Numbered from the stretch's first letter, positions 10,048 through 59,238 are shown. The stretch is 64,000 nucleotides of DNA from Gammaproteobacteria bacterium (GCA_027018875.1 JALUYA010000003.1:13665-77664), one strand, 5' to 3'. The notes: a model not told the origin generated them from the letters alone. Made by a program: numbers and translations.

Positions 10048-10054
10048 GAGCACA

Positions 10055-10642
10055 TCATTCAGGGTACAGGCGGGCATCGACCAGGTCACACAGGCAGTGC
10101 AAAATCAGGCCGTGTACCTCCTGGATATGTGCCGTGCGTGTGCCCGGAACCCGCAATTCCAGATCGCCCGCCAGCAACGCCCGGGCCATGGCGCCTCCCT
10201 CCCGTCCACTCAAGATCAACCCCCAGGCCCCGGCCTGGTGTGCCGCCTGCAGCGCCGCCAACACATTGGGCGAATCCCCGCTGGTGGAAATGCCGATCAG
10301 GACATCGCCCGGACGCGCCAACGCCGTTACCTGCTTGGAAAAAACTTGGTCGAAGCCATAATCGTTGCCGATCGCGGTCAGTGCCGAGGTATCGGTCGTC
10401 AACGCGATCGCAGCCAACGGGGACCGTTCACGCTCGAACCGACCGGTAAACTCGGCGGCCAAATGCTGGGCATCGGCCGCCGAACCCCCGTTGCCACAGG
10501 CAAGGATTTTACCGCCCGAGCCCAAGGTGTCGGCAAGCCGATCCGCGGCCTCACCGATGCGGGCGGCCAGCTGATCCCGCGCCCGCAACTGGGTTTCCGC
10601 GGCCGTGCGGAAATACTCACGAACCCGTTCAGTTGCATTCAT
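10055..10642 (-). CDS. diaA: SIS-domain protein (DnaA initiator-associating DiaA / phosphoheptose isomerase family)
   Basis: CGNGGSAADAQHLAAEF and ISTSGDS motifs. Synteny lpoA-yraN-diaA as in E. coli. ATGA overlap with yraN. Confidence 0.75.
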   Translation of the reverse strand: MNATERVREYFRTAAETQLRARDQLAARIGEAADRLADTLGSGGKILACGNGGSAADAQHLAAEFTGRFERERSPLAAIALTTDTSALTAIGNDYGFDQVFSKQVTALARPGDVLIGISTSGDSPNVLAALQAAHQAGAWGLILSGREGGAMARALLAGDLELRVPGTRTAHIQEVHGLILHCLCDLVDARLYPE

Positions 10643-11004
10643 ATCGTTTCCCCAAAAGCGTTCCGAATCCACTCGATATCCTCTTCCGGCCCTATCGCCA
10701 CTACATCGATCCGCAGCGCTCGTCCGTCGGCCCCCGGTGTCGCGGCGACGTAGAGCCGCACGGCTCGCTCGATCCGGGCGCGTTTCGCGGCATTAACGCT
10801 TTCCAGCGCCCCCCCGTAGTCCGATCGACTACGATACCGCACCTCTACGAATACGAGGGTATCTCCCTCGCGCATCACCAAGTCAATCTCGCCGTAACGG
10901 TATCTGACGTTGCGCGCCACGAACTTTAATCCACGTGCCTTGAGCCAAGCCAAGGCACGGGATTCCGCCTCTGCGCCCCGGCGCATCGCCGGGGTAACCC
11001 TCAT
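10639..11004 (-). CDS. yraN: YraN family (UPF0102) endonuclease-like protein
   Basis: 121 aa; GAEAESRALAWLKARGLKFVARNVRYRYGEIDLVM...VFVEVRYR. Conserved position after lpoA. Confidence 0.85.
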   Translation of the reverse strand: MRVTPAMRRGAEAESRALAWLKARGLKFVARNVRYRYGEIDLVMREGDTLVFVEVRYRSRSDYGGALESVNAAKRARIERAVRLYVAATPGADGRALRIDVVAIGPEEDIEWIRNAFGETI

Positions 11005-12737
11005 CGCCTCTGATCCAGGAGCGGAATCATGTTGCCACCGGCATCGTATTCAGCCCAATCGAGGCGCCGACCGATAATCCGCTCCGCTCCCAAACTCAAT
11101 ACCCCGGTCACCCCGCGCACGGGCTGAGCCAGCGGCCGCGGGTAGTTGGCCAACAGCGGAACCAGCCGCCATGAATCATAGCCAAGCGCATACAGCCGGG
11201 CCATTCGGCTCCAGGCCTCGGGAAACAGCGTCTGAAACCGTTGCCGCAGGGTGGCGACCGGACCGTCCATGGCCGCGAACCACGGCATAATGGGAAATAC
11301 CACCCCGGCAAGGTCGGGGTGGGGGCCGCCCGGGCGGTAAATATTGGCCAGAGAATACACCGGCAAGCCCAGACCCTGATAGTAGGCGACCTGGGGACCG
11401 ATCAGCCGCGCCGTGGCGAATGGTGCAGCAAAAAAAAGAAATTGGATATCCTGCCGCCGCCGGGGGGAAAACCCCAGGGTCATCCCCAGCACGGTGCTGA
11501 GGCGTTGCTCCCGGGCGGTGCTTGCATCCAGCCCGAACAATGCCGACAAGGGCTGAGCAAAGCGTTCCGCCCCGGGGCGAAAGCGGGCCGTCACCAACAC
11601 CTGGCCTCCCGCCCGCTCCAATGTTTGCGCAAAGGCATCCCGCATGCGCTGCCCCCAAGCATTGTCGGGAATCAGAACAGCGGCACGCCTCAATCCCCGG
11701 GCCAGGGCGCGACGGGCCACGGCCCGGGATTCGGCGGCGGGACTCAATCCGAACTGATAAAAGCGATCGGGCGGCAATACACCGCCAAGATAATTCAGCG
11801 CCAATACCGGCGGCCGGTCTTGCACCTGCGCCACCCCTCGCACCCCAGGTGCGGTCAACGGCCCGAGAATAAATCCGGCACCCGCCCGCCGAGCCTTGTC
11901 CAATGCGGCGACGGCTCCGCTTGCGCTACCTTCGGTGTCATACACCTGCAGGGCCGGATGCGCCTCCCCCCCCTGGAAATAGGCCGCAAGAATACCGGCT
12001 TCCACCGCCCGGGCCTGCGAAGCATGAGGCCCGCTCAAGGGCAGAAGCAGGGCGACCACGGAAGGATATTTCGTCCGCTTCCGGGCGGCGGCGAGGATCT
12101 CGGCGAGCAACCCGGAATTTGCGGGGTGGTTGGGGTAGCTCTTGCGCCATGCGGACAAAGACTTACTGAACTCGGCAGGAGTCTCCCAGGAGGCCCGAAA
12201 AATTTTCGCCAGGGCCACCCATCCTCGCTCCTCCGGGGACAACCCCTTGAGAGACGGTAATTGCGCCACGTTGCTGAGGCCGTTCCAGATCAACCGGTCA
12301 TTGGCCAAAATCCGGTCCGGCGCCTGTAATAACCGCCCTCGCGCCACCAAGGCATGCAGCGCCGCGCGCGCCGCATCAAGGGCGAATTGTGCCCGCCCCT
12401 CGAGGGCCAGGTAGCGGATCCGTCCGGCTTCATCCGCCGCGGCGGGAGCCGCGGCCAGGGCCGCCAAGGCCGCTCGGGGGCGATCCAGTTCGAGCGCCAG
12501 CCGCGCCTTGAACAGCGCCGCGACGAAACGGATGTCCACAGGCAGGCCATTGATCTTCACCGGGGCCAGAATTCGCCAGGCCGCGGCCGGCTTGCCTGCC
12601 CGGTCGGCGGCCCGGGCGGCCTGGAACCGGGCCGGGGCACTCGCACCCGGGGGAGGCACTGCCCGCATCGCACACCCGCCAGCCAGTGCGAGAACCACCG
12701 CCAGTGTGAATATCCTGAGTGAAGGCCCCGCTTGCAT
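11001..12737 (-). CDS. lpoA: penicillin-binding protein activator LpoA (lipoprotein)
   Basis: ORF 11001..13241 trimmed to the ATG at 12737, giving lipobox LALAGGC. The longer form would overlap rsmI on the other strand. TPR-like N-terminus and periplasmic-binding-like C-terminus. Confidence 0.8.
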   Translation of the reverse strand: MQAGPSLRIFTLAVVLALAGGCAMRAVPPPGASAPARFQAARAADRAGKPAAAWRILAPVKINGLPVDIRFVAALFKARLALELDRPRAALAALAAAPAAADEAGRIRYLALEGRAQFALDAARAALHALVARGRLLQAPDRILANDRLIWNGLSNVAQLPSLKGLSPEERGWVALAKIFRASWETPAEFSKSLSAWRKSYPNHPANSGLLAEILAAARKRTKYPSVVALLLPLSGPHASQARAVEAGILAAYFQGGEAHPALQVYDTEGSASGAVAALDKARRAGAGFILGPLTAPGVRGVAQVQDRPPVLALNYLGGVLPPDRFYQFGLSPAAESRAVARRALARGLRRAAVLIPDNAWGQRMRDAFAQTLERAGGQVLVTARFRPGAERFAQPLSALFGLDASTAREQRLSTVLGMTLGFSPRRRQDIQFLFFAAPFATARLIGPQVAYYQGLGLPVYSLANIYRPGGPHPDLAGVVFPIMPWFAAMDGPVATLRQRFQTLFPEAWSRMARLYALGYDSWRLVPLLANYPRPLAQPVRGVTGVLSLGAERIIGRRLDWAEYDAGGNMIPLLDQRR

Positions 12738-12795
12738 AAGTGGCTTCAAATGCAGAGGATAATCCCGAGTACTCCCATTGCGACGGACTGCAATC

Positions 12796-13656
12796 ATGTC
12801 AATTTCTCCCGGCACCCTGTACGTGGTGGCGACACCGATCGGCAACCTGGACGACTTCAGCCTCCGGGCCCGGCGGATCCTCTCCACCGTGGACTTCATT
12901 GCCGCCGAGGATACACGCCACAGTAGCATCTTGCTCAAGGCCTTCGACATTACCGGAAAAGAACGCATTTCGTTGCATGAACACAACGAGGCCGAGCATT
13001 CGCAGCGGATCGTCGCCCGGCTCCTTGCCGGCGAAACCGGGGCGCTGATTTCCGATGCGGGCACCCCGCTGGTGAGCGATCCGGGCTTCCGGCTGGTGCG
13101 CGCCGTGCAGGCGGAAAATCTTGCGCTGAGCCCAATTCCCGGGGCCTCGGCCGTGACTGCGGCCTTGTCGGTGGCCGGGATGGCAACCGATCGATTCGCC
13201 TTCGAAGGCTTTCTCCCCGCCCGTGCCACGGCTCGGCGCAAGCGCCTTGCGGCGCTCGCCGAGGAAGCCCGAACCCTGGTTTTTTACGAGGCCCCCCATC
13301 GCCTCGTCGCCCTGCTCAGCGACTGCGTGGAACTGTTTGGCGGCGATCGGGAAGCCGCACTGGCCCGGGAGCTGACCAAGATCCACGAATCGATCCGCCG
13401 CGCCCCGCTCGAGAAAATCCTGCATCGGCTCACCAGCGGCGAGGAACCGGCGCGGGGCGAGTGTGTGGTGCTGATCGCGGGCGCCCCCGAGCGCGCCTCC
13501 GGGTACAGCACCGAGCCCCTTTTGAAAGCACTCCTGGCCGAAGGGCTTTCCCCTTCGGTCTCGGCAGGCATCGCCAGGCGCTTGAGCCGGCAACCGCATC
13601 GGCGACTGTACCGCCGCGCGCTCGAGCTGTCCCGGGAACTCAGGCAAGGCGAGTAA
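12796..13656 (+). CDS. rsmI: 16S rRNA (cytidine1402-2'-O)-methyltransferase
   Basis: [20 protein letters not shown]...AAEDTRHS motif. Divergent from lpoA as in enterics. Confidence 0.9.
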
Positions 13657-14908
13657 AAACCCGCTCGGCGGCGGTGAGCGTCGCGTCGAGATCGGCCCCG
13701 GTGTGGGCGCCCGAGACGAAGGCCGCTTCAAAGGCCGAAGGCGCAAGATACACCCCCGCTTCCAGCATGGCGTGAAAGTAGCTCGCATAGCGTGCGGCGT
13801 CGGCCGCGACCACGTCGGCATGGCAGTGAACCGGATTGGCGGTGAAAAACACCGAGAACATGCCACAGACCTGGTTGATGGTGAGCGCCACCCCGGCCCG
13901 CTTCGCCGCCGCGGCCAGTCCCATAGCCAAACGCCGGGTCGCCGCTTCCAAGCGGGAATAGAACCCGGGTTCGGTCGTGAGCTCCAGGGCCGCCAACCCG
14001 GCGGCCATGGCCAGCGGGTTACCCGAGAGCGTACCCGCCTGGTAAACCGGCCCGGTGGGTGCCAGCAGATCCATCAACTCGGCCCGGCCGCCAAAGGCGG
14101 CGGCCGGCAGGCCCCCACCGATGATCTTGCCGAGGGTGGTCAGGTCCGGGCGCAACCCGAACAACCCCTGCGCCCCGCCCGGAGCAACCCGGAATCCGCT
14201 CATCACCTCGTCAAAGATCACCAGGGCGCCGGCCTGGTGCGCGGCCTCGAGCAGACCCTCCAGGAACCCGGGCAGCGCCGGCACACAACCCATGTTCCCC
14301 GCCACCGGCTCGACGATGATCCCGGCAATATCATCCCCCTGCGCGGCAAATACCCGGCGCACGGCATCCAGGTCGTTATACGGCAACGTCAACGTAAGCC
14401 GCGCCAGCTCGGCGGGCACCCCGGGGGAAGAGGGAACGCCGAAGGTAAGGGCACCGGAGCCGGCCGCGACCAAGAGCGAGTCGGAATGGCCGTGGTACCC
14501 ACCGGTGAACTTGATGATCCGCTCGCGCCCGGTCGCCGCACGGATCAACCGGATCGCGCTCATTGTCGCCTCGGTACCGGAATTGACGAAACGTAGGCGC
14601 TCGATCGCGGGAAACCGCTCGATTACCGCCTCGGCAAGCAACGTCTCGGCCTCGCAGGGAGCCCCAAAAGAGGTGCCCCGGGCCGCGGCTTCGCGGATCG
14701 CCTCGATGATACGGGGGTGGGCGTGGCCGGCGATCATCGGCCCCCAGGAACCCACGTAATCGATATAGCGCCGCCCCTCGATATCGTAGAGTCGGGCGCC
14801 CTCGGCGCGGGCGATGAATACCGGATCTCCACCCACCGCGCCGAAGGCGCGCACCGGAGAATCCACGCCTCCGGCAAGTACCCGCTTGGCCCGTTCGAAT
14901 GCAGACAT
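13640..14908 (-). CDS. hemL: glutamate-1-semialdehyde 2,1-aminomutase
   Basis: Start at the ATG at 14908 ([22 protein letters not shown]...). Near-colinear with E. coli HemL motifs ([25 protein letters not shown]). Confidence 0.95.
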
Positions 14909-14937
14909 TATTGGATCCCCTGCTGAATCTATAAAGT

Positions 14938-15582
14938 CTAACTCCCCGGCCCGGCATCGCGCCGGGGTGCGGCGCAAAGCCCTACCAGCGATCTGGCCGT
15001 GGCCTCGATATCGCCGGCGGAGAATAGGGCGGAGACCACGGCCGGCAAATCGACTCCCGCGGCCAGCACCGCGGAGATATTCTCCAGGCGAATGCCTCCG
15101 ATGGCGCAGATCGGCACCGCCAGCTCGCCCCGCGCCTGCCGAATCCGCTCCAGCGAGACACGCCGGGCATGGGGTTTGGTCGGGGAGGGGAACACGCTGC
15201 CGAAAGCGACATAATCGGCTCCCGCGGCGACCGCCGCGCGGGCCCGGGCCAGGCTGTCGTAGCAAGACACTCCAATCACCGCGGCCGCCCCCAGCAATTC
15301 CCGCGCCAGAGTCGGATCAAGATCTTCGCGCCCGAGATGAACCCCATCGGCTTCGACCGCGGCCGCAAGCCGGGCATCGTCGTTGATAAGCAGGAGTGCC
15401 CCGTAATTATGCACCAGGCGGCACAATCCGCGGGCTTCGGCTTCGCGCCGCCCCTGGCCGGCCCGCTTGTCGCGATATTGCACCAGCCGAACCCCTCCTC
15501 GCAGTGCGGCCTCGGTCGCGGCGAACAGTTCCCTGCCGCAACGGGCATCGGTAATTGCGTAGAGCCCGGCAAGCCGCCTCAT
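14938..15582 (-). CDS. thiE: thiamine-phosphate synthase
   Basis: ATG at 15582 ([12 protein letters not shown]...). ATGA overlap with thiD. TMP-TENI fold motifs. Confidence 0.9.
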
Positions 15583-16334
15583 CCCCAACGCCCCGGCAGG
15601 GCCTGGCCACGGCCGGGGGAAAAGGCCCGGGCAAGGCTTTGTTGAACGAAACGCTCGGCGACGGCGAGGGCCTCCTCGATCCCCATACCCAAGGCAAGCG
15701 CAGCGGCGATCGCGCTCGCCAGGGTGCACCCGGTGCCGTGAAACTGTCCCTCCCGGCGCGGTCCCACATCGATCTCGCGCCGCGAACCGGCGCCGCCGTA
15801 GAGCCACTGAACAACCCGATCTCCCGGCGCATCACCACCGGTCACTAGGCACCAACCAAGGCCCTGCTCCCGCCACCGTTCCAGTGCCGCCTCCCCTCCC
15901 AGTTGCTCGAATTCCTCACGATTGGGTGTCGCAACCAGGCTTCTCGGGATGAGTTTCTCCCGGTAGATCTGCACCAACCCCGCAGCAGTCAGCCGCCCGC
16001 CGCCCGTGGCGCCCAGCACCGGGTCGGTGATAAGAAGTAAATCCGCATGTCGCTCCAGAAACTCTACAACGGCACGGCCATTCTCGGCGCTGCCCAGTGC
16101 TCCCAGCTTGACCGCGGCAACCCGGCAATCGTTGAGCACGGCCTCGGCTTGATCCAGCAGCAACTCCGACCCGACCGGCTCCGCGCGCCACAGACGCCGG
16201 GTATCCTGAACCGTAATCAGGCTGAGTACCGGCGCCGGATGCGCACCGAGAGCGCTCAGCGTCTGAATATCAGCCGTAAGCCCGGCTCCCCCCGAGGGAT
16301 CCAGTCCGCCGATCACGAGTACGGTTGGGCGCAT
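15579..16334 (-). CDS. thiD: hydroxymethylpyrimidine/phosphomethylpyrimidine kinase
   Basis: [22 protein letters not shown]-terminus, [12 protein letters not shown] near the C-terminus. Confidence 0.9.
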
Positions 16335-16389
16335 CAGGCGGCGCTCATGCGAAAATGGTATCTTGCTTCATACACGGAGGATCACCTTA

Positions 16390-16560
16390 ATGGCCTATAA
16401 AAAGTATATCTGCGTCGTCTGTGGCTATATCTATGATGAAGCGAAAGGGGATCCCGAAGCCGGGCTGAGCGCGGGAACCCGCTGGAGTGAGGTGCCGCTC
16501 GCCTGGGTCTGCCCGGACTGTGGCGTTCCCAAGCAAGACTTTGAAATGATGGAATTTTAA
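16390..16560 (+). CDS. rubredoxin
   Basis: 56 aa from the ATG at 16390. Two CxxCG knuckles (CVVCG, CPDCG). GGAGGA RBS upstream. Confidence 0.9.
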
Positions 16561-16690
16561 CCCGAATTGCTTGACCAAACCGGCATGGCTCCAAATCGTG
16601 ATCCGCCCTAGAAGATCCGCCGGGGCAATTATTCGAATCTGGCCGCAATATATAACCCGATGATATTATTACCAATATCCATCTATACGG

Positions 16691-16696
16691 TATAAT
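16691..16696 (+). promoter_or_regulatory. candidate -10 element (TATAAT) about 275 nt upstream of the 16972 operon
   Basis: Perfect TATAAT in an AT-rich patch. No convincing -35, so weak support. Confidence 0.3.
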
Positions 16697-16971
16697 GCCA
16701 CTTGAGAATTAGCCCAAGAGGCATGCCGCCACATCCAGGTTCTGGAACGACGGCATCTTTCGGGTGACGAATCCGCTGATCCTGCCGAAGGCCTCGCCTA
16801 CGCTGGGCAATCCGGGTACGGCAATCGCTCCATTGCCGCTTTACGGGCTGGGAAAACACGGTTTGGTCACCACCGGACTCATCCGGCCACCAACGGTAAT
16901 CGTCGCCGAAAGGCGGTCTGGCATTCTGCACCGAATAAAGTAACGGATTTAAAATTTCTTGGGAGAACATA

Positions 16972-18792
16972 ATGGTCGTTTCAAAGCAAATCAGAAAGGT
17001 TGTCGTATTTGGCGGGGGCGGCCTGGTCGGCTACCAGATATGCCGCTTGATGGCCCGTGAGGTCAAACCGGATTTCATCGTGGTTTGCACCCTGCTGAAA
17101 AGCGAGGCCGAGGCAACAGTCGCCCGCCTCGAGGCGGAATTCGAAGGCTCCCGCACCCGGTTTATCGGCGAATACGGAAACCTGTTCGTTCGCGAAGAAT
17201 ATACTCATCTCTCCAAAAGAGATATCCAGGGCGACAGTCAAACCCTGGACACGATTTATGCCGATGTCTTCGGCCGGCTCACCGAGGAGCCGGAAAATAT
17301 CGCCACCCGTGGCCTGATGCCCAAGATAATCCTTACTTACAAGCCGGATGCAATCGTTGATTGTGTCAACACGGCGACCGCCATCAGTTACCAGGATGTT
17401 AAAAGCAGCTCCAAGGTCGTAAAGGAATTCCGCGATGCCCTGGCCGATATACTCGGCACGGACATCTCCGGTGTCATCGCCAAGGCCAAGGCCGGTGATC
17501 CTCAGGGCATTGCGCAGTTGTGCGATTTCGCCGCCAGAATAAACCATCTCAGCAAGGCGCCGATCGAGAGTTTTCCCTACCTGGATAACCTGAAAATGAT
17601 CGACCTGCTGCTCATTTCGCAGGCCGTACCGCAACTGGTACGCCACGTCACCCTGTTGTACCAGGCCATGCTTAAAGCAAAAACCCATATTTATATAAAA
17701 GTAGGTACTACCGGAACCGGCGGCATGGGCATAAATATTCCCTTTACCCACGGTGAGGACAAACCCAGTTTTACGCTGATGGCAAAATCCAGTGTCGGTT
17801 TCGCCCACACGGGATTGCTGTTTTTGCTGGCCCGTTCGCCGGGACCCATTATCAAGGAGATCAAGCCCGGCGCCATGATCGGATACAAGCGGATTGTTTA
17901 CAAGGATATCTCCAAGTTTCACACGCCGGTCATCCTGACCGAGCCAAAAAAGGAAACCCTGGGAACCCGCATCAGCGTGCGCGAGGATATCAGCCAATAC
18001 AGGCAGAATGGCCACCTTTCCCTGGTTGGTATCGATACCGGGGAAAACGGATTTTTTTCCCGCGGCGAGTACGAGGCCATTACCTACATGGGCTCCATGG
18101 AATTTGTCACCCCGGAAGAGATCGCCCGCAACGTTTTATTTGAAATCGCCGGTTCCAACACCGGTAAGGATATCATCGCCGCAATCGACGGGGCGATCAT
18201 GGACCCCAGTTACCGAGCCGGCCTTATCCGCCAGGCGGCCATTGATGAAATGCTGCAAAAAGAGAAAAAACACGGTATCCCCAGCATTGCCATCGGTGAG
18301 CTGGGACCACCTCAACTCTCCAAATTATTGTATGAAACCCATCTCTTGCAATCGGTATATCCCGATTTGAACGAATGGGCGGATGCGGCCAACACTCCCG
18401 AGCAGATGGCGGCGGCTTTGCTGAGAAAACTGGATGAATCTGCAATCAAGGCGGTAATCACCTCCCTGGGACTGGCTATCCTTTTGCCCGACGGGAAGAG
18501 CATCTACCGCGGCTCCACCCTGTTCATTCCGGAATCCAAGGTACACAAAATCGTTGATATACATGCCGGTGATGTGGACGCCTGGGCTCATCATGGCTGG
18601 ATCGATCTACGGCCATCCAACATGCGGGTATGGAAAGATCGCGCCGGCAAAATGCTGGCTTCCGGTCACCAAAAATATGCGGAAGGTTCCGCCGCCGTTG
18701 GGCCACAATATTATTCATCCAGTAATATTCGCACGGGAGAAGTAGTCGGCTGGATACTCAGTACCGAGTTCGAAGGCTCCCGCAGAAAATAA
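16972..18792 (+). CDS. hypothetical NAD(P)-binding (Rossmann-type) protein, family not recognised
   Basis: GGGAGA RBS then the ATG at 16972. VVVFGGGGLVGYQICRL dinucleotide-binding motif. Second Gly-rich block VGTTGTGGMGINIPFTHGE. No signal peptide, TM segment or Cys cluster. Confidence 0.8.
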   Translation: MVVSKQIRKVVVFGGGGLVGYQICRLMAREVKPDFIVVCTLLKSEAEATVARLEAEFEGSRTRFIGEYGNLFVREEYTHLSKRDIQGDSQTLDTIYADVFGRLTEEPENIATRGLMPKIILTYKPDAIVDCVNTATAISYQDVKSSSKVVKEFRDALADILGTDISGVIAKAKAGDPQGIAQLCDFAARINHLSKAPIESFPYLDNLKMIDLLLISQAVPQLVRHVTLLYQAMLKAKTHIYIKVGTTGTGGMGINIPFTHGEDKPSFTLMAKSSVGFAHTGLLFLLARSPGPIIKEIKPGAMIGYKRIVYKDISKFHTPVILTEPKKETLGTRISVREDISQYRQNGHLSLVGIDTGENGFFSRGEYEAITYMGSMEFVTPEEIARNVLFEIAGSNTGKDIIAAIDGAIMDPSYRAGLIRQAAIDEMLQKEKKHGIPSIAIGELGPPQLSKLLYETHLLQSVYPDLNEWADAANTPEQMAAALLRKLDESAIKAVITSLGLAILLPDGKSIYRGSTLFIPESKVHKIVDIHAGDVDAWAHHGWIDLRPSNMRVWKDRAGKMLASGHQKYAEGSAAVGPQYYSSSNIRTGEVVGWILSTEFEGSRRK

Positions 18793-18803
18793 ACGAGGTC
18801 ATC

Positions 18804-20465
18804 GTGAAAAAGAGCATTCTGTTATCGGGCAACGAAGCCTTGGCCCGTGCGGCCTGTGACGCGGGGGTAAAGGCCTTTTATGGCTATCCCGGAACGCCTT
18901 CCACCGAAGTTTTCGAAACGGGCGCACGCCATATCGCGAAACTGGATGATGGGCGGGCCGCCGAGTGGGCCGCCAACGAAAAGGTCGCCTATGAATTTGC
19001 CCTGGGTACCAGTTACACCGGCTACAGGGCCGTAGTCACCATGAAGCACGTTGGTCTGAATGTGGCAATGGACGCCTTTGTAAACTCGGCCCTCACCGGC
19101 ATACAAGGTGGGGTCGTAGTCGCCGTAGCCGATGACCCGGGCATGCATAGCAGCCAGAACGAGCAAGATACCCGTTTTTTGGCGGACTTTGCCAATATCC
19201 CCTTATTGGAGCCAAGCAGCCCGCAGGAAGTGTATGATTTCACCCGCGAAGCATTCGAACTTTCCGAGCGCGAACAACTGCCCGTGGTAATGCGCATGGT
19301 TACCCGCCTTTCCCACTCGCGAGGGCCGGTCCAGCCCGCGGCCACAACCCTGGCGCCTACCTCCATCGGGCTGCCGGGCGGCGAAGATAAAAACCACTGG
19401 ATGCTCATCCCCTCCTATGCCCGAAAGCGTTACCGCAGCCTGCGCGACAAACTCCCCGAGCTGGTCTCCAACGTGGGCAAACATAACCGGTTGACGCTGC
19501 ACCGCGGTTCCAGAACCGGGGTGGTAACGGCCGGGATGGGCCGCGCCTATTTTGAGCAGTATCTCCAAGACAATCGCATTCCCCCGGAAAAATATAACCG
19601 CTTGGAAATCAGCGGCTATCCTATCGATCCGCAACAGCTCGAAGCGTTGGTCCGCGCTTGTGAAACCATCTATATTTTCGAGGAAAACTACCCTTATCTC
19701 GAAGACAAGGCCATACCCTACGGCAAGGGAGTTTGCACCATTCATGGCCGCCGGGACCAGACCCTGGACATCGACGGTGAGCTGAGCATCGCCAAGCTGC
19801 GGGAAGCCCTGGAAGGGCGCACCGTGCGGGGCAAAGTTGATGCCACGATGATGGCCGAGATCTCCGGGTTAATCCAAGTTCGCCCGCCTAAACTATGCGT
19901 CGGCTGCGGGCACACCGATGCTTTCCGGGCCATCACCACCGCCCTGGAAAATCTCGGCATCGAGGACCATCGGATTTTTGGGGATATCGGTTGTTATTCC
20001 CTCGGGATTCTTCCTCCATTAAGCGGAATGAATACCGTGGTGGAAATGGGGGCCTCCCTATCCATGGCCCTTGGAGCAGCCATGGCCGGGATGAGTCCCA
20101 GCGTCGGTGTTATCGGTGATTCCACCTTTTTCCATTCCGGGATGACCACCCTGCTTTCGGCCGCTAAATCCCACTTGAATTTAAACCTGGTCATCCTGGA
20201 CAATTCCATCGTCGCCATGACCGGTCAGCAACTTCCCGTGGCCGCCGATATCGCCCCCGTGCTGGCCCGCGCGATCGGGTTCGGTCCGGATCAAATCCAT
20301 ACACTGGCACCACTGCCGAAACAAACAGCCGCCAATATCGAGAAACTGGAAAAGATCTTTTCCGAGGAAAGGCCCAGCCTGATCATCTTTAAACGCAAAT
20401 GCATCCAGGCTATCCGCCGCAAGGTTTACCCCGCCTCGAAAAAGCAGGAGATCCAGGATGCGTAG
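18804..20465 (+). CDS. indolepyruvate/2-oxoacid:ferredoxin oxidoreductase alpha subunit (IorA-like), lacking a ferredoxin domain
   Basis: GTG start 11 nt after the previous stop, with a GAGG RBS. POR N-terminal motif YGYPGTPSTE. ThDP region LCVGCGH...GDSTFFHSG. No CxxCxxCxxxCP motif present. Confidence 0.85.
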   Translation: MKKSILLSGNEALARAACDAGVKAFYGYPGTPSTEVFETGARHIAKLDDGRAAEWAANEKVAYEFALGTSYTGYRAVVTMKHVGLNVAMDAFVNSALTGIQGGVVVAVADDPGMHSSQNEQDTRFLADFANIPLLEPSSPQEVYDFTREAFELSEREQLPVVMRMVTRLSHSRGPVQPAATTLAPTSIGLPGGEDKNHWMLIPSYARKRYRSLRDKLPELVSNVGKHNRLTLHRGSRTGVVTAGMGRAYFEQYLQDNRIPPEKYNRLEISGYPIDPQQLEALVRACETIYIFEENYPYLEDKAIPYGKGVCTIHGRRDQTLDIDGELSIAKLREALEGRTVRGKVDATMMAEISGLIQVRPPKLCVGCGHTDAFRAITTALENLGIEDHRIFGDIGCYSLGILPPLSGMNTVVEMGASLSMALGAAMAGMSPSVGVIGDSTFFHSGMTTLLSAAKSHLNLNLVILDNSIVAMTGQQLPVAADIAPVLARAIGFGPDQIHTLAPLPKQTAANIEKLEKIFSEERPSLIIFKRKCIQAIRRKVYPASKKQEIQDA

Positions 20466-21042
20466 CCCCACTACCTTTGGTGTGATCGTGGCCGGCGTAG
20501 GAGGACAGGGCGCCATAACCATCGCCCAATTGATATTGGCCGCGGCCTGGATGGGCGGCCTGCACGCCATGCAATCCGAAGTGCATGGGATGAGCCAGCG
20601 CGGGGGGGAAGTAAACGCCCAGGTCCTTTTCAGTAACGCCGGGATCCGCTCGCCCATCATCGAAGCCGGCACCGCAGACTTGCTGATCGGCCTGGAACCA
20701 CTGGAAACCCTGCGCCATCTGCATTACCTGGGCCAGGCCGGCCATACCGTTACCGCATCGGAGCCACTGATCAATATGGACGCCTATCCCGAGCCGGAAA
20801 AATTGCTGGCCTTACTTCACAAGACGCCAAACGTAAAACTTATCGATACCAAAACGTTCGCCACTGAATTACACTTCACCCAGGCGGGAAATATGGTCCT
20901 GTTAGGCGCCGCCACTAATTTCATGCCTCTCGACGAGTCGGTCTGGACCAAGGCCATGCGAAAACGCTTCCACTCCAAGAGCGATAAGATCATCGAAAAA
21001 AACCTGGCCGCCTTGCGGCGCGGAAGAGAATTAACGGCCTGA
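20458..21042 (+). CDS. 2-oxoacid oxidoreductase beta subunit (IorB-like, POR gamma-type domain)
   Basis: 194 aa; GVGGQGAITIAQLI motif. 8-nt overlap upstream and TGATG overlap downstream. Confidence 0.85.
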   Translation: MRSPTTFGVIVAGVGGQGAITIAQLILAAAWMGGLHAMQSEVHGMSQRGGEVNAQVLFSNAGIRSPIIEAGTADLLIGLEPLETLRHLHYLGQAGHTVTASEPLINMDAYPEPEKLLALLHKTPNVKLIDTKTFATELHFTQAGNMVLLGAATNFMPLDESVWTKAMRKRFHSKSDKIIEKNLAALRRGRELTA

Positions 21043-23180
21043 TGCCTTCCTCCTTTATCAACGAAGCAGCCTGTTACGGTCTGTTGGAAAAATACGGTAT
21101 CAAAACACCGCGTTCCATTTTTCTAACCTCGGCCAACCCATCCACGGCTCCATTCAAGCCGGGTGAGGATATCGTGTTAAAAGCGGTGGTGGATGAGGTG
21201 TGGCATAAATCCGATATTGGGCTGCTGGAGTTTGCCACCTTTTCCGTGGAAAATATAGGCCGGATCTTCCGGCTATTCCGGGAACGGAACCCATACCCGG
21301 ATAACTGGCGGGGTATGCTGGTCTGTGAAAAGGTATCCTCGGCCTCCAGCTCCCTGCCCGCGGAAATCCTGCTATCCATCCGCCAAGATACCAGTTGCGG
21401 CCCGGTGGCCACGTTCGGCTTCGGCGGCATCCATACCGAACTTTGGGACAGGGAATTAAAACAGGGGGCATTAACCTTTCCAACCGCAATGACCGGGGTG
21501 CAGGATGCCCTGGATGCCATCTCCAAACATTTTCTGGGTAAAATTTTGCGGGGCACCCTGCGCCAGGGGAAGGCGCTGACCAGCACGGAGACATTGAGCA
21601 AGCTGCTGCGCGCCGTGTGGGACCTGGCCGCCCATTTCCGGGATGAAAAACTGTCCCTGTTGGAAATCAACCCACTGGTCGTGGACGTGACCGGAGATTT
21701 TATCGCCCTGGACGCCGTCGGCAAAAGGGCGGAAAAACCAACTACCTCCTCCGTCACCCCGCGGAAAAAGGCTCCCGCCTCCCTGCCCAACGAGGCCTTA
21801 TTCAGGCCCCGCACATTTATTATTGCCGGGGTTTCATCGCGCAAAAAAGCCTTCGGCAATTTAATCTTGGATAACCTCGGAAGATCGACTCTCCCTCGGG
21901 AAAATATCCGGGTGCTGAAACCGGGCGGCACCGAATTCGAAGGCTACGCAACCATCTCCTCGCTTGCCGAAATTGAAACGCCGGTAGATGTCCTCATCCT
22001 GGCCGTTCCGGCGGCGGCGGCCATCGGGCTCGTCGGGCAAGCCTGTAAAACCGCCGCGGCCCGCTTGGTCTATCTCGTCTCCGGCGGCATCGGCGACAGC
22101 GCGGACCATGAAGACTTAAAACGGCAACTGCAAAACCTGCTGGGCGCCTATCCACCGGGGCGCCGCCCCCGGCTGATCGGCCCCAACTCCCTGGGGATCA
22201 TCCTGGCGCCACAAAGGGTGAACACCTTGTTCATCCCCACGGATAAACTTCCGGTCGGTTTTCATCCCGATGGGACTATCGGCTTCATTTCCCAAAGCGG
22301 AGCTTTTTTTATCACCCGGATTTCACGCAATCCGTCTCTCGCCATTCGCTATGGTTTCTGTATTGGTAACCAGTTGGATATTTCCGCCACGGAAATCCTG
22401 CGCTCCATGGCGGAACAAGAGGGCCTGGAGGTCATCGGGATGTATCTCGAAGGCCCACCGCAAGGCGACGCGCTAGGCCTTGCCCAGGCGATCGCGAGCA
22501 TCGACACGGGCAAAAAAATCATCGTCTATCGCGGCGGACGGAGCCGTGCCGGAATGGCCGCGGCCGCCGGGCATACGGGAGCACTGGCTTCGGAATACGG
22601 CATCGAAAAAGAACTGCTGCAACACGCCGGAGCCGTGGTTTGCGAGAGCTTTACCCAGTTTGAGCACAGCCTGGGTTGGTACGGCGCCTACCCGGGATTC
22701 AGCAAGCCTCCCGGCGCAAAGGTTTTTATCATGACCAACGCCGGGTATGAATCCGTGGCCGGCGCCGATGGGCTGGGGCCTCGGCTCGCTCCCCTGTCGG
22801 CAAAACTCCGGCGGCAAATAAACACCACCCTCGGCTCCCATGGCTTGCATGGCATCGTGGCCGCGGCCAACCCGTTGGACTTGACCCCCATGGCTTCCGA
22901 TGACGCCTATTTCGCCTGCGCCGAGACGATCCTGCGCGCGGGAGAAATCGGCCTGCTGATCATCGGCATCGTCCCGCTTACGACCATGATCGAAACCGAT
23001 GACAGCACCCGGATCACGATGCATGCACAGCGGTTAAAACGGTTGATCGATAAAAGCGCCACACCCGTGGCCGTCGTGGTGGATGCCGGAAGCCTTTACT
23101 CGAAATTCAAACAGGCTTTCATGCGGGCCAATATTCCCGTTTTTGCCTCGGTACAGGAGGCATTCGGGCTGATCCGCTGA
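21042..23180 (+). CDS. ADP-forming acyl-CoA synthetase (acetate--CoA ligase family), ATP-grasp half first
   Basis: N-terminal ATP-grasp-like region (YGLLEKYGIKTP...VLKAV...HKSDIGLLEF). Then a CoA-binding region (FIIAGVSSRK...) and GPNSLGII plus the phosphohistidine motif AAGHTGALA. Confidence 0.85.
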   Translation: MPSSFINEAACYGLLEKYGIKTPRSIFLTSANPSTAPFKPGEDIVLKAVVDEVWHKSDIGLLEFATFSVENIGRIFRLFRERNPYPDNWRGMLVCEKVSSASSSLPAEILLSIRQDTSCGPVATFGFGGIHTELWDRELKQGALTFPTAMTGVQDALDAISKHFLGKILRGTLRQGKALTSTETLSKLLRAVWDLAAHFRDEKLSLLEINPLVVDVTGDFIALDAVGKRAEKPTTSSVTPRKKAPASLPNEALFRPRTFIIAGVSSRKKAFGNLILDNLGRSTLPRENIRVLKPGGTEFEGYATISSLAEIETPVDVLILAVPAAAAIGLVGQACKTAAARLVYLVSGGIGDSADHEDLKRQLQNLLGAYPPGRRPRLIGPNSLGIILAPQRVNTLFIPTDKLPVGFHPDGTIGFISQSGAFFITRISRNPSLAIRYGFCIGNQLDISATEILRSMAEQEGLEVIGMYLEGPPQGDALGLAQAIASIDTGKKIIVYRGGRSRAGMAAAAGHTGALASEYGIEKELLQHAGAVVCESFTQFEHSLGWYGAYPGFSKPPGAKVFIMTNAGYESVAGADGLGPRLAPLSAKLRRQINTTLGSHGLHGIVAAANPLDLTPMASDDAYFACAETILRAGEIGLLIIGIVPLTTMIETDDSTRITMHAQRLKRLIDKSATPVAVVVDAGSLYSKFKQAFMRANIPVFASVQEAFGLIR

Positions 23181-23505
23181 CGGCCGGCGCAAGCGCGGGG
23201 GGAGGTAGAACCGTTGATTTATCGCCACGCCCGGTCTGCCTCGACCTGCATGGCCGATTTTTACCTTGAGCCGCCACTCGATCATCCCCCGGAGCCGCTC
23301 AGCCGCATATGGCCGTGCAGGGCGCGGCTTGGCGATTCGGCGCTTCCCCCGGCCAAGGCGGAACAGACGGGGGGTGGCGGCCGGTGGTTATAACGGATGG
23401 ACCGCCCAAGCAGAAAATGCAGGCAGGGGATGGCCGGAGTTACACTGATCCGTATCAGACGGATCACAGCGTCATCACGTGAGGAGTCTTCCCGGGTATC
23501 CGCTT

Positions 23506-25026
23506 ATGAAACAGGATCGCGCACAGCGGCGGCTCGGCCTCGTCCTGCTGTTGTTCCTTGGCGTTCTCGCCGCCCGCGCCCCGGCTTCCGCCCGCCAGGC
23601 GCCGCCTTTCCCCTCCTCCCTGCCGTGGTACAACGTCACTCGGGCGCTCACCTGGCACGATCTACGCGGCCGAGCCGTGTTGCTCGATTTTTTCACTCCC
23701 GGATGTATCAACTGTATCCACATGTTGCCGGTGGAAGAACTCCTGCAGCGCCACTTCGGCAAACGGCTGGTCATCATTGCGGTAGATTCGCCCAAATTCA
23801 GCGCCTCGGCGTCCGCTCCCGGCCTGATCGCCTTCATCCGCCGCTATCGCCTCCAACACCCGGTGCTGTTGGATCCCCGGAACCGGCTCTGGGATGCCTA
23901 TCACATCTTCGCCTGGCCGACTTTTATCCTCATCGGCCCCCACGGCGAACTTCGTGCACGCCTGCTCGGGGAGCAATCCGCCGCGGCGCTCAGCGTACCG
24001 ATCGCCGCCGCCCTGGCCGGGACCCCTCCCATCTCCGCGTTGCAACCACTTCCCCGGCAGGGGGGCACGGCCGCCAACCTGGCGCTGGCGGCACCGGGCG
24101 GATTAGCGGTTTCCAGGCGCCGGGTCGCCATCGCCGACACCGGCCACAACCGCATCATCCTGGCCGATCACCAGGGCCGGGTCGAGGCCGTGATCGGAAC
24201 GGGCTGTGCCGGGACCGCCAACGGCGGCTATGCCCAGGCGGAATTCAGGCGCCCCCACGGGCTCGACTTCCATGCCGACAAGCTGTATGTGGCCGATACC
24301 GAAAACCAGTTGATCCGCATCATCCATCTCAATACTCGACGGGTCTCGACGCTTGCGGGAAACGGCAAGCGGGAATATATCGTCTCGGGAAAGTTCACGC
24401 CGCACGCGGTACCTCTCGATTCACCCTGGGACGTACAGTGGATCGGAAACCAGCTCTACATCGCCATGGCGGGCGACCATGAAATCTGGCGCTACAACCC
24501 CGTAACCGGGCGCCTGGGCCCGTGGGCCGGCTCGGGACGCGAGGGGCTTGCCGACGGCTCCCTGGCGCGGGCCAAATTCGCCCAGACCAGCGGCCTGAGC
24601 TCTCACGGAGATACCCTGTACGCGCTCGATCCGGAATCTTCGGGGATCCGCTCCATCAATCTCGCGGATCCCATCGTAAAAACCCGTATCGGGCAAGGTC
24701 TGTTTCGCTTCGGCGAACGCAACGGCGCCGCCGCCCAGGCTCTGTTGCAACATCCCGAGGCCCTGGCCTGGCTCAATGGATCCCTCTACATCGCCGATAC
24801 CTTCAATAACGCCTTGCGGCGCTTGAACCTGGCATCCGCTGAAGTCACCACCGTGACGCAAAACCTGGGCCAGCCACAAGCAATCGCCGTCCTGTCCCCA
24901 AGCACTCTCCTGGTTGCCGAATCCAGTGCCGGGCGGATCGCAGCCATACGCCTGCCCTCGGAAAAAACCGATCCCTGGCCTCTCTCCGGCCTACCCCCTT
25001 CCCACTGCAAAAAGGTCACACCATGA
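23506..25026 (+). CDS. secreted thioredoxin-like domain / NHL-repeat protein
   Basis: The ATG at 23506 gives a signal peptide. Thioredoxin-fold CxxC (FTPGCINCIH). Repeated NHL-like units (ADTGHNRIILAD, VADTENQLIRII, IADTFNNALRRL). Confidence 0.85.
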   Translation: MKQDRAQRRLGLVLLLFLGVLAARAPASARQAPPFPSSLPWYNVTRALTWHDLRGRAVLLDFFTPGCINCIHMLPVEELLQRHFGKRLVIIAVDSPKFSASASAPGLIAFIRRYRLQHPVLLDPRNRLWDAYHIFAWPTFILIGPHGELRARLLGEQSAAALSVPIAAALAGTPPISALQPLPRQGGTAANLALAAPGGLAVSRRRVAIADTGHNRIILADHQGRVEAVIGTGCAGTANGGYAQAEFRRPHGLDFHADKLYVADTENQLIRIIHLNTRRVSTLAGNGKREYIVSGKFTPHAVPLDSPWDVQWIGNQLYIAMAGDHEIWRYNPVTGRLGPWAGSGREGLADGSLARAKFAQTSGLSSHGDTLYALDPESSGIRSINLADPIVKTRIGQGLFRFGERNGAAAQALLQHPEALAWLNGSLYIADTFNNALRRLNLASAEVTTVTQNLGQPQAIAVLSPSTLLVAESSAGRIAAIRLPSEKTDPWPLSGLPPSHCKKVTP

Positions 25027-34913: not shown

Positions 34914-35513
34914 ATGAAACACTCAAGCAAGACATTACTAGGTATTTCCGCGGCCCTTGCAATTGCAATTGCCACCGGATCCACCGTGTACGCGCAAGGC
35001 ACGAACCAGCAGGCAACCCAAGGGACCATGATGGGTAACACGACCTCCATGATGCACGGACAAAACGCAAATATGGGAGACCGCTCCTCCCGGATGGGCG
35101 GACAAAACGGCATGATGGGCGGTCATGGAAACATGATGCAGATGATGAACATGATGATGGGTGGCCGCGGTTATCTGGTGGGCAGGATGGGCATGATGGG
35201 AAATTCCAAGGCTTACATAGATAAACGCCTGGCAAACACCAAGAAGATCCTGGGCATCACCCGGAACCAGCTGCCGGCCTGGAATGCCTATACCAAGGCC
35301 ATACAATCCCAGGCGGATTTCATGATCACGCGCATGCAACGGATGCGGAACGGTCAATTCCCCAACGTGGACCGGCGGGCTGCCATGATGGATTCCTGGG
35401 CCGGACAAATGCAGAAAACGGCGGCGGCGGCTAAAAATCTTTATAAAAAGCTCACCCCGGCACAGCGAATCAAGGCCAACCGCTGGTTACCCATCCCGGG
35501 TAGCCATTATTGA
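34914..35513 (+). CDS. periplasmic Spy/CpxP-family protein with a Met/Gly-rich N-terminal region
   Basis: AGGAG RBS, signal peptide ending VYA. 18 Met in about 62 residues (MMGNTTSMMHG...NMMQMMNMMMGG). LTxxQ-type motif LTPAQRIKA. Confidence 0.8.
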   Translation: MKHSSKTLLGISAALAIAIATGSTVYAQGTNQQATQGTMMGNTTSMMHGQNANMGDRSSRMGGQNGMMGGHGNMMQMMNMMMGGRGYLVGRMGMMGNSKAYIDKRLANTKKILGITRNQLPAWNAYTKAIQSQADFMITRMQRMRNGQFPNVDRRAAMMDSWAGQMQKTAAAAKNLYKKLTPAQRIKANRWLPIPGSHY

Positions 35514-35529
35514 GCCCGGTATCCCACTT

Positions 35530-35560
35530 CCGGCCCGGTTTAAACCGGGCCGGATTTCTC
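35530..35560 (+). terminator. rho-independent terminator after the CpxP-like gene
   Basis: CCGGCCCGG-TTTAAA-CCGGGCCGG perfect 9-bp stem, followed by ATTTCTC. Confidence 0.7.
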
Positions 35561-35718
35561 CTGACGGATTAACGTTCGCATGCTACGATATTCGTAACTA
35601 TGCCCGCGGAATCTTCATGTCGACCACGCCGATTCGTCAAAAAGTATGATTCATCCACGAATTCAGGTTACCTGAAACTCAAATAGACCGATAGCGCTGT
35701 CCCCCAGGAGAACTCCGG

Positions 35719-58046: not shown

Positions 58047-58128
58047 GATGAGCTCCTATTCCAATTTACCATCTGTATCATTAACGCCGGGTTTCCGGCG
58101 ATGGCTTGGAGAAACCCGGCTCCCTGAA

Positions 58129-58851: not shown

Positions 58852-59238
58852 TCTCATTCTCCTGCATCCCGGAAATTTATCGGGTCCGGAGCCGGTTCCC
58901 GCACAATTAGACACATCATGCCGGCCATCGTTCAGGCCCAGCCGCAAACTCAAGTGTATAGCAATCGGACCCGCCATGATATCCGCCGCTATAGGCCATT
59001 GATACACAACAATATTTACCAGATCCTGTGCCATGTGACCAAGGGTTTCGGGGCAAATCCGGCCCCCCGTTTTTCCCGGATCTTCCCCCATCCACGATTC
59101 CCTCCGACAGCAACTCCGGAAAAAACGGCAACCCCGTATCGAACCGGCGTTATCCCCCACAAACCGATCTTAATCTACCGGCAAGTATAAAATTGTTTAT
59201 ATTGTCATCATTCGCAAAACAGGGGAGTTAAAAACCCA

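Follow-up and report, generated by a model that had tools for sequence, protein, structure and literature searches.

The window analysed here, a 64-kb stretch of DNA from an uncultured gammaproteobacterium, contains a tightly packed operon in which the genes for a predicted 2-oxoacid oxidoreductase and acyl-CoA synthetase follow one for an unrecognised protein, g1, and which lies downstream of a rubredoxin gene on the same strand. This arrangement raises the questions of what pathway the operon encodes, what its lead protein contributes, whether the genes are foreign to the chromosome and whether the rubredoxin belongs with them. The original prediction was that of a horizontally acquired islet comprising rubredoxin and a module for the conversion of 2-oxoacids to acyl-CoA and ATP.

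The oxidoreductase-synthetase pair

ORF calls on the sequence delineate four plus-strand genes at 16972-23180, namely g1 (606 aa, 16972-18792), an iorA-like gene (553 aa, GTG start, 18804-20465), an iorB-like gene (194 aa, 20458-21042) and acd (712 aa, 21042-23180). The junctions, read directly off the sequence, are an 11-nt gap between g1 and iorA (TAA acgaggtcatc GTG), an 8-nt overlap between iorA and iorB (ATGCGTAG) and a TGATG overlap between iorB and acd, exactly as had been described. The domain assignments likewise agree with the prediction of an IOR-type oxidoreductase and an ADP-forming synthetase behind an unrecognised Rossmann protein. The alpha subunit of the 2-oxoacid:acceptor oxidoreductase contains the anticipated POR-type N-terminal and ThDP domains (POR_N, PF01855, E 8.4e-16; TPP_enzyme_C, PF02775, E 1.7e-13; motif GDSTFFHSG), and the IorB-like subunit contains a POR gamma-type domain (PF01558, E 6.7e-32) and matches the NF005324 IorB model (E 2.8e-58).

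In the archaeal prototype, IorA ends in a ferredoxin-type domain that contains two CxxCxxCxxxCP motifs. The window IorA, in contrast, aligns with TIGR03336 (E 4.9e-131) only over model positions 4-538 of 595, and the gene models contain no ferredoxin-type domain; as originally noted, neither subunit has a CxxCxxCxxxCP motif, which is absent from every frame across the whole window. Thus, whatever accepts the electrons must be a protein distinct from the enzyme, which upholds the part of the original prediction that placed the electron partner outside the enzyme. Four cysteines (C365, C368, C397 and C533), enough for one cluster, and the ThDP motif (G438-D439...N467) do not vary among 29 homologues; as in other OFORs, these cysteines are predicted to hold a ThDP-proximal [4Fe-4S] cluster, making the enzyme a single-cluster type. 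Two-subunit OFORs of the Sulfolobus/Aeropyrum type similarly lack the dicluster ferredoxin domain and have one [4Fe-4S] cluster near ThDP and a free acceptor, but the window IorAB belongs to a different subfamily with a different domain arrangement. Sequence searches of the PDB returned no IOR structure and only partial sequence matches to OFOR subunits (E from 1e-13 to 2e-4). The ferredoxin-less architecture is not peculiar to this operon but typical of a large clade of bacteria: the best 120 of at least 8000 IorA homologues (E <= 0.001) are 532-565 aa long and contain only POR_N and TPP_enzyme_C, with no Fer4 Pfam domain in any of them.

The acyl-CoA synthetase contains, in order, ATP-grasp_5 (PF13549, 6-225), CoA_binding_2 (PF13380, 257-386) and Succ_CoA_lig (PF13607, 411-540) domains, i.e., a fused beta-alpha order. 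This ATP-grasp-first arrangement had been correctly noted but is not novel, given that it has already been solved in PDB 9y43, an ADP-forming 3-hydroxypropionate-CoA ligase (NF045492), with which the window protein is colinear (6-623 against 19-612, E 3.2e-41) and to whose SHTGS its phosphohistidine-loop GHTGA aligns. Colinearity extends to the NCBIfam models NF045492 and NF045494. Nevertheless, at 164 bits against a cut-off of 1300, the window ACD is not an orthologue of the 9y43 ligase, and substrate and direction probably differ. Across the equivalogs tested (acetate-, 3-hydroxypropionate- and 4-hydroxybutyrate-CoA ligase), its scores were 180, 164, 155 and 124 bits against cut-offs of 567, 1300, 1200 and 1300, respectively, and IorA (437.9 bits against 650.9) and IorB (197.1 against 222) also fall below their NCBIfam equivalog cut-offs. 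Given these scores of IorA and ACD, sequence by itself decides neither the substrate of the pair nor the direction of the ACD reaction.

The combination of IOR and ACD is a textbook archaeal route to ATP from amino-acid-derived 2-oxoacids. As in the IorAB plus ACS II systems of Pyrococcus and Thermococcus, the window operon couples a two-subunit enzyme of the IOR family to an NDP-forming acyl-CoA synthetase, with the same logic of 2-oxoacid to acyl-CoA to ATP; unlike those systems, it has a single beta-alpha ACD fusion in place of separate alpha and beta subunits, a single operon with an extra lead gene, and scores below the curated equivalog cut-offs. The same three genes in the same order, encoding a ferredoxin-less IorA of 539-553 aa and an ATP-grasp-first ACD of 712-713 aa, are present, and annotated, in Geothrix terrae (L172) and on a metagenome contig (L173); these trios lack the upstream g1 of the window and show identities to it of 52-56% for IorA, 45-56% for IorB and 38-39% for ACD. 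Thus, ACD order, ferredoxin-less IorA and the iorA-iorB-acd trio are all already known, and the g1-led cassette is a variant. We view the trio as a recurrent bacterial module to which g1 was added as an accessory in one subclade only.

By homology, IorAB, with ThDP and a single [4Fe-4S] cluster, would oxidatively decarboxylate a 2-oxoacid to acyl-CoA and transfer the electrons to a separately encoded acceptor, and the fused ACD would then convert acyl-CoA, ADP and Pi to the acid, CoA and ATP, presumably in this direction. A reverse route for salvage or assimilation has also been considered, in which an aryl or branched-chain acid is turned into its CoA ester by ACD at the cost of ATP, IorAB reductively carboxylates this ester and g1 converts the 2-oxoacid to an amino or hydroxy acid. 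The only solved ACD of the same domain order, that of PDB 9y43, is physiologically CoA-ester-forming, in the thaumarchaeal HP/HB cycle; methanogens employ IOR in aryl-acid assimilation; and the family name of g1 includes the word 'reductase'. However, such a route would depend on reduced ferredoxin of low potential, and a gene for one is found neither in the window nor next to any homologous operon. Moreover, at the L170 locus, g1-iorA-iorB directly follows a catabolic cluster of the leucine/isovalerate type (acyl-CoA dehydrogenase, carboxyltransferase, enoyl-CoA hydratase, biotin carboxylase and an HMG-CoA lyase whose score exceeds the curated cut-off) that lacks exactly two steps, from amino acid to 2-oxoacid and from 2-oxoacid to acyl-CoA. 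We therefore consider the reverse route improbable.

The lead protein g1

Searches of g1 against NCBIfam and a copy of Pfam-A without the PF27054 model yielded no family at E <= 0.01, and no SDR model, consistent with its description as unrecognised. A precomputed match to PF27054 ('Beta_methylindole_red_C') is, however, present in all 120 of its best homologues, the window protein included. In the AF2 model (pLDDT 85.7), the first ~300 residues give Foldseek matches to SDR proteins (best E ~5e-5; 74 matches at E <= 0.001, with the 50 listed all SDR-type Rossmann proteins). The N-terminal half shares with the SDR superfamily a Rossmann fold of SDR topology, a Gly-rich dinucleotide-binding motif GGxGxxG (GGGGLVG; G14, G15, G17 and G20 invariant), an invariant K272 and a PG motif after beta-6. 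It departs from that superfamily in its large helical insert, in the lack of an SDR Pfam match and in the canonical catalytic Tyr-x3-Lys: position 268, four residues before K272, is variable, and reading of the sequence revealed no invariant Tyr in 255-272. The ~310-residue C-terminal half (~296-606) resembles no known fold; when residues 296-606 were modelled on their own with AF2, the best Foldseek match in the PDB had an E of 0.59, and sequence and profile searches of the PDB returned nothing past the first ~60 Rossmann residues. A metagenome scan with a single protein query detected no relative, and its repetition with an alignment query detected distant relatives alone (<=47%).

The family comprises ~1000 clusters at 50% identity, and of the 173 loci that contain a g1 homologue, ~160 have neither iorAB nor acd nearby (flanks up to 10 kb), which indicates that the function of the family is not tied to IOR. 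The expected association with iorAB, with or without acd, holds for the closest relatives of g1 and solely for these; one further locus (L008) consists of g1-acd alone. We also assessed g1 as a redox partner of IOR and rejected this as the leading view, with no Fe-S motif or evidence of flavin in g1 and ~93% of the family loci devoid of a nearby OFOR. In addition to the L170 context, g1 homologues occur in the order pheS-g1-pheT in Blastocatellia and beside M17 or M20 peptidases in Bdellovibrionota, and together these neighborhoods point to amino acids. The characterised founder of PF27054 may be Ind2 of indolmycin biosynthesis. Ind2 is an NADH-dependent ketone reductase (PMC8246080). The family name suggests that some member reduces an indolepyruvate derivative, 3-methylindolepyruvate, whose chemistry resembles that of IOR substrates.

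With these contexts in view, that g1 supplies or consumes a 2-oxoacid, as originally proposed, appears plausible, and we infer that it probably supplies one. In the first step of the proposed pathway, g1 would act as an SDR-like enzyme that binds NAD(P) and has a C-terminal domain of a novel kind, converting an aromatic or branched-chain 2-amino or 2-hydroxy acid into the corresponding hydrophobic 2-oxoacid. The CoA-ester-related neighbors of some homologues (thiolase and 3-hydroxyacyl-CoA dehydrogenase), as well as the missing canonical Tyr and Pfam SDR match, count against this role.

Those neighbors could be accommodated if g1 acted after IOR as an oxidoreductase of CoA esters or aldehydes, such as an acyl-CoA reductase producing an aldehyde or alcohol as a reductive outlet parallel to ACD. 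All recurrent neighbors of g1 handle CoA esters, namely iorAB, acd, a thiolase encoded upstream in 19 loci and, in P0405, a 3-hydroxyacyl-CoA dehydrogenase joined to g1 by fusion or read-through, and the thioester-reductase R domain ranks 28th among the Foldseek matches. Yet hundreds of generic SDR matches accompany this one, the thiolase link appears to lie mostly within Chloroflexota, the pheS/pheT and peptidase neighborhoods are at odds with such a role, and by Pfam g1 has neither an NAD_binding_4 nor an aldehyde dehydrogenase signature. We regard such a downstream role as unlikely and retain the supply of a 2-oxoacid as the preferred function.

Rubredoxin, the insertion site and probable horizontal transfer

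The rubredoxin gene (16391-16560, plus strand; Pfam Rubredoxin, E 3.8e-22) likely starts at the ATG at 16391, which is preceded by GGAGGA, and not at 16363. It had been considered part of the acquired islet, but in relatives it is conserved with, and divergent from, thiD-thiE-hemL (L174; L175, ThiD 84%; L176, 63%), and tblastn searches found rubredoxin in none of 11 loci with homologous operons (flanks up to 10 kb). On this basis, rubredoxin is a resident backbone gene, unrelated to the cassette and outside it. Its low GC is intrinsic, being seen in the relatives as well.

The 411-nt spacer between rubredoxin and g1 is of host origin (16561-16961). Positions 16620-16891 are 72.5% identical to the DNA downstream of the L174 rubredoxin, and homology to the cassette of the unrelated host contig L167 starts at 16962, which places the left insertion junction within ~16892-16961. 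We found no conserved reading frame in the spacer and no terminator-like site on its plus strand; a promoter-like site is present at 16669-16696 (TTACCA-16-TATAAT, 10 of 12 positions matching). L167, L006 and L007 share a conserved element upstream of the cassette that is missing here, so that transcription could read through from the rubredoxin promoter.

These features bear on the idea that rubredoxin is the dedicated acceptor of the ferredoxin-less IOR and arrived in the same islet. Rubredoxin has been reported as an acceptor of Chlorobium PFOR, and its gene here shares the strand of the operon, from which it is separated by 411 nt devoid of terminator-like sites; read-through is conceivable in a cassette that lacks the conserved upstream element. 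Against it stand the retention of rubredoxin beside thiD in relatives, including L176, in which the syntenic site has no cassette (the L174 and L175 contigs end too early to be scored, that of L174 at the junction itself), its intrinsically low GC, and its absence near the 11 homologous operons. Thus, rubredoxin and IOR as an acquired pair are disfavoured, and with them the linked electron partner envisaged originally; we deem this explanation very unlikely.

The GC content of the operon (0.565) is lower than that of the remaining window (0.619) and, as had been estimated, lower than that of both the left flank (thiD to hemL, 0.674) and the right-flank genes (0.64-0.66); only 7.4% of windows of operon size are equally low. 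The deficit resides mostly in codon positions 1 and 2 (GC1 0.56-0.60 against 0.64-0.77), with just a small drop in GC3; in synonymous codon usage, the distance of g1, iorA and acd from host genes is z ~0. Hence the predicted compositional shift is present, but the host-like synonymous codon usage makes composition weak evidence for recent transfer. The operon is not the most deviant stretch of the window, being exceeded by two other islets, at 35-37 kb and 56.5-59 kb.

The case for transfer comes from the phyletic pattern and from DNA homology confined to the four genes. The order g1-iorA-iorB-acd is present in L001, L002, L006, L007, L167, L168 and L169, and identities drop in step over the four genes (82/79/70/66, 81/79/68/58, 71/69/54/52 and 66/59/52/41), which, together with the shared order, indicates that the four genes have been inherited and transferred together. 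The closest homologues (66-82%) are found in Calditrichota, a host with Por_Secre_tail (type IX secretion) flanking genes and other low-GC hosts (GC 0.33-0.45), whereas the nearest named relatives of ThiD are Gammaproteobacteria (54-57%). Comparison of the window DNA with L167 reveals homology only at 16962-23166 (71.5% identity), ending within ~10 nt of the cassette ends, and in L176 rubredoxin-thiD-thiE-hemL is present with no cassette at the syntenic site. Furthermore, in most hosts examined the GC of the cassette departs from that of the flanks, in either direction. These observations support the view that the cassette is foreign to its chromosomal site and has spread horizontally.

The genes neighboring the cassette include no mobility gene or integrase, the window search found no tRNA, and the repeat search detected only short, chance-level repeats around the cassette and no flanking repeats; along with host-like synonymous codons, these results count against transfer. 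An Rfam scan of the window gave zero matches at the gathering level and two sub-threshold matches near the operon. Vertical inheritance, with the GC dip reflecting the amino-acid composition of the proteins, would suit the codon usage, the shift in GC1 and GC2 and the lack of mobility genes, tRNA and repeats, but is quite improbable given the distant low-GC homologues, the gammaproteobacterial affinity of ThiD, the abrupt homology limits and the cassette-free site in L176.

A proposed catabolic cassette and its implications

Taken together, the evidence makes it moderately probable, in our assessment, that the operon is a catabolic cassette of four genes that lacks a promoter, spread by horizontal transfer and was inserted downstream of the resident rubredoxin, and that in it the 2-oxoacid to acyl-CoA to ATP route operates behind g1. 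A more speculative extension, which we offer only tentatively, is that PF27054 represents a new NAD(P)-dependent class, with a Tyr-less SDR-like core and a C-terminus of new fold, that makes hydrophobic 2-oxoacids from amino or hydroxy acids and has here been joined to a single-cluster IOR and ACD as a self-contained mobile 'amino acid to ATP' cassette of non-fermentative bacteria that would use a generic host acceptor.

A literature search returned nothing specific, that is, no characterised iorAB-acd operon or ferredoxin-less IOR and no biochemical study of the bacterial ferredoxin-less iorA-iorB-acd form. This form, which pairs a single-cluster IorA devoid of the ferredoxin domain with a beta-alpha ACD fusion, appears to be widespread, judging from the best 120 of the at least 8000 IorA homologues. 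The rubredoxin of this locus serves as an example of how gene adjacency can mislead. The cassette and the L170 locus, in turn, provide the most direct genomic handle on the predicted function of the g1 family.

Enzymes encoded by the operon

Four genes occupy the plus strand exactly where they had been placed by the original prediction: g1, the lead gene (16972-18792, 606 aa), iorA (18804-20465, 553 aa), iorB (20458-21042, 194 aa) and acd (21042-23180, 712 aa). Direct reading of the sequence puts g1 and iorA 11 nt apart, shows iorA and iorB to overlap by 8 nt (ATGCGTAG) and joins iorB to acd by a TGATG overlap. By homology, the roles assigned to IorAB and the ADP-forming acyl-CoA synthetase (ACD) are well supported. 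Gene 2 encodes POR_N and TPP_enzyme_C domains and matches the equivalog model for IorA of indolepyruvate:ferredoxin oxidoreductase (IOR) with E 4.9e-131, over model positions 4-538 of 595 only and under the curated cut-off, and gene 3 is identified as IorB by domain and family models. None of the reading frames across the 64-kb window contains a CxxCxxCxxxCP motif. Cys 365, 368, 397 and 533 of IorA are invariant, together with the ThDP motif, in an alignment of 29 homologues, a pattern that fits the single ThDP-proximal [4Fe-4S] cluster predicted by analogy with other 2-oxoacid:ferredoxin oxidoreductases (OFORs). The lack of the ferredoxin motif was thus read correctly, but the supposed uniqueness of this subunit was not: all of the best 120 IorA homologues, from Bdellovibrionota, Geothrix, Calditrichota, Lentisphaeria and others, are 532-565 aa long with POR_N and TPP_enzyme_C only, so that, judged from these proteins, a ferredoxin-less IorA is not peculiar to this locus. 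A sequence search of the PDB returned no IOR structure and only partial OFOR matches.

Gene 4 encodes an NDP-forming acyl-CoA synthetase with the domain order ATP-grasp_5, CoA_binding_2, Succ_CoA_lig and the GHTGA motif. That the ATP-grasp half comes first had been noted rightly; the order is not new, because the protein is colinear with the solved 3-hydroxypropionate-CoA ligase [ADP-forming] PDB 9y43 (6-623/19-612, E 3.2e-41), which shares the ATP-grasp-first arrangement, and likewise with two NCBIfam ligase models. Moreover, short iorA, iorB and ATP-grasp-first acd form a trio in the absence of g1 in Geothrix terrae and at one further locus (L172 and L173), indicating that the trio is a recurrent bacterial module; a literature search found no paper characterising it.

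Probable transfer of the cassette, and its resident neighbour

The predicted drop in GC content is apparent: the operon has a GC of 0.565 compared with 0.619 for the remainder of the window, lower than both flanks (0.674 on the thiD-hemL side and 0.64-0.66 in the right-flank genes), and the dip is real, given that only 7.4% of 6.2-kb windows are equally low. It resides mainly in codon positions 1 and 2, whereas the synonymous codon-usage distance from 27 host genes is unremarkable in three of the four genes (z ~0 for g1, iorA and acd; z = 1.5 for iorB). Two other low-GC islets deviate more than the operon. The one at 34914-36906 (GC 0.50-0.55, codon-usage z = 1.2) encodes a CpxP/Spy-like protein of the LTXXQ type and a protein of 395 aa that matches Pyr_redox_2 in part; the most deviant, at 56550-59160 on the minus strand (GC 0.49-0.54, z = 2.5-2.6), encodes a 498-aa aldehyde dehydrogenase together with a hydrolase of the HAD family, and looks more foreign than the four-gene operon.

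The proposal that the islet was acquired is supported by its boundaries, although not by its host-like synonymous codon usage. DNA homology to L167, a cassette-bearing locus of an unrelated host with a flank GC of 0.45, is confined to 16962-23166 (71.5% identity), and host-type homology to L174, a backbone relative, runs up to about 16891, which places the left junction within ~70 nt and limits the insert to the four genes alone. All four proteins share their nearest relatives, and the identities drop in step. Furthermore, the cassette is higher in GC than its surroundings in other hosts (in L006, 0.54 against flanks of 0.42 and 0.34) and lower in the window; contrast of either sign is what a cassette that moves among genomes, and is only partly ameliorated, should show. 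Searches around it revealed no integrase, no tRNA and no flanking repeats.

The rubredoxin gene immediately upstream (16391-16560, plus strand) had been taken for a linked partner, a view that the comparison with backbone relatives does not support. The named relatives in a ThiD search are Gammaproteobacteria MAGs (54-57%), which identifies the host as an uncultured gammaproteobacterium. Rubredoxin lies divergent from thiD-thiE-hemL in L174 (ThiD 84%; backbone DNA 85-88% identical to 9365-16572), L175 (ThiD 84%; DNA 86% identical to 14047-16572) and L176 (ThiD 63%), the last of which continues after rubredoxin with an M48 peptidase and has no cassette. In these relatives, too, the GC of the gene and of the spacer downstream of it is low (L174, 0.52 and 0.50 against 0.66; L176, 0.61 against 0.71), and no rubredoxin was found at 11 loci with homologous operons, in flanks of up to 10 kb. 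Thus, rubredoxin is a resident neighbour, and its adjacency is no evidence for a function as electron acceptor, which the data nevertheless allow.

An element of ~45 nt, located upstream of g1 (...TTCCAAA...ATTTCGTATATT...; CTTCCAAAC.GAAAAGGTATTTCGTATATTTA...), is conserved between the hosts L167 (6053-6100), L006 (9909-9955) and L007 (about 1210-1250) and may serve as the cassette's own promoter or operator. It is absent from the window, so that expression here must depend on host signals, for which the predicted candidates are a promoter-like TTACCA-16-TATAAT at 16669-16696, in the spacer between rubredoxin and g1, and read-through from rubredoxin, given that no terminator-like site separates the two genes. 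The noncoding segment 3' of rubredoxin (16620-16891) is 72.5% identical to L174, with no conserved reading frame and no Rfam match, and could act in regulation or encode a small RNA. Terminator-like hairpins are about twofold enriched in 16000-24000 (18 compared with 8.8 +/- 3.1 in shuffled sequence), mostly within coding regions and on the minus strand. A match to the Rfam Chlorobi-1 sRNA just 3' of the operon (23252-23333, minus strand; 18.8 bits compared with a gathering threshold of 50, E 0.23) is most likely due to chance.

The lead protein and its gene neighborhoods

As anticipated, g1 is an unrecognised protein, with no match in local Pfam-A, NCBIfam or PDB sequences. Almost all of its more than 6000 homologues are unnamed or labelled 'hypothetical protein', the best 120 all carry a precomputed match to PF27054 'Beta_methylindole_red_C', and 1036 clusters (E <= 1e-3) emerged when 1.84 billion representatives were searched with a profile. 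A confident AF2 model (pLDDT 85.7, pTM 0.80) gives Foldseek matches to SDR structures across roughly the first 300 residues (E about 5e-5); the C-terminal half modelled separately (pLDDT 78.8) has a best PDB match of E 0.59. Homologues share the dinucleotide motif and Lys272 without exception, but not the canonical Tyr four positions before that Lys; K243-VGTTGTGGMG, a second motif rich in Gly, hardly varies.

Across 173 g1 loci, gathered from genomes representing species, from metagenomes and by exact look-up, linkage to IOR and ACD exists only among close relatives. The complete g1-iorA-iorB-acd order is found in L001, L002, L006, L007, L167, L168 and L169 (g1 identity 66-82%); at 56% identity, L170 and L171 have g1-iorA-iorB, followed in L170 by a two-subunit CoA-transferase and cut short in L171 by the contig end within iorB, and L008 has g1-acd only. 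At ~160 loci (41-47%) both iorAB and acd are absent nearby, a weak partial TPP-enzyme match in L090 being the sole trace. The Calditrichota-type contigs L001 (11836-11961) and L002 (2753-2878) contain a 41-aa ORF (MEYWNAGVLENTISDNSPISSIHFGQGEMKCQFENDYKELY) between g1 and iorA, which is not rich in Cys and is unlikely to be a redox protein.

Some distant g1 genes, for the most part those of Chloroflexota, occur in the order thiolase-g1-unknown protein-pyruvate kinase. The unknown protein, conserved directly after g1 (median ~362 aa; L014:11795-13018 and 33 other loci), matched nothing in Pfam, NCBIfam or the PDB; often a thiolase comes before it, and pyruvate kinase, GDPD and a gene resembling DAG kinase come after it. 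In Blastocatellia, g1 is found as pheS-g1-pheT (L005/L018 8001-9728 and eight further loci; identity about 42-44%), where it unusually interrupts the operon for phenylalanyl-tRNA synthetase, and in Bdellovibrionota peptidases adjoin g1.

Proposed role of the cassette

We lean, by a modest degree, towards a catabolic cassette in which g1 would make a hydrophobic 2-oxoacid, the predicted single-cluster IorAB would convert it to acyl-CoA with transfer of electrons to a separate free acceptor, and ACD would conserve the thioester energy as ATP. The part played by g1, the substrates of IorAB and ACD, the acceptor and the flux direction are all inferred. The best contextual argument for 2-oxoacid formation comes from L170, where a leucine/isovalerate-type cluster, with an HMG-CoA lyase above its own curated cut-off, precedes g1-iorAB and lacks exactly the steps from amino acid through 2-oxoacid to acyl-CoA. 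The alternative that g1 acts on acyl-CoA stays alive through its CoA-ester gene contexts, namely the thiolase and a PaaH-like 3-hydroxyacyl-CoA dehydrogenase, whose C-terminal half forms one protein with a complete homologue of g1 in the cluster representative P0405 (924 aa), either as a true fusion or by read-through of adjacent genes.

The original prediction read the sequence itself correctly and went too far on three points, the rubredoxin link, a novel domain order and a unique ferredoxin-less IorA. The value of the locus is that it directs attention to an uncharacterised enzyme family, that of g1, and to an unstudied bacterial type of IOR.
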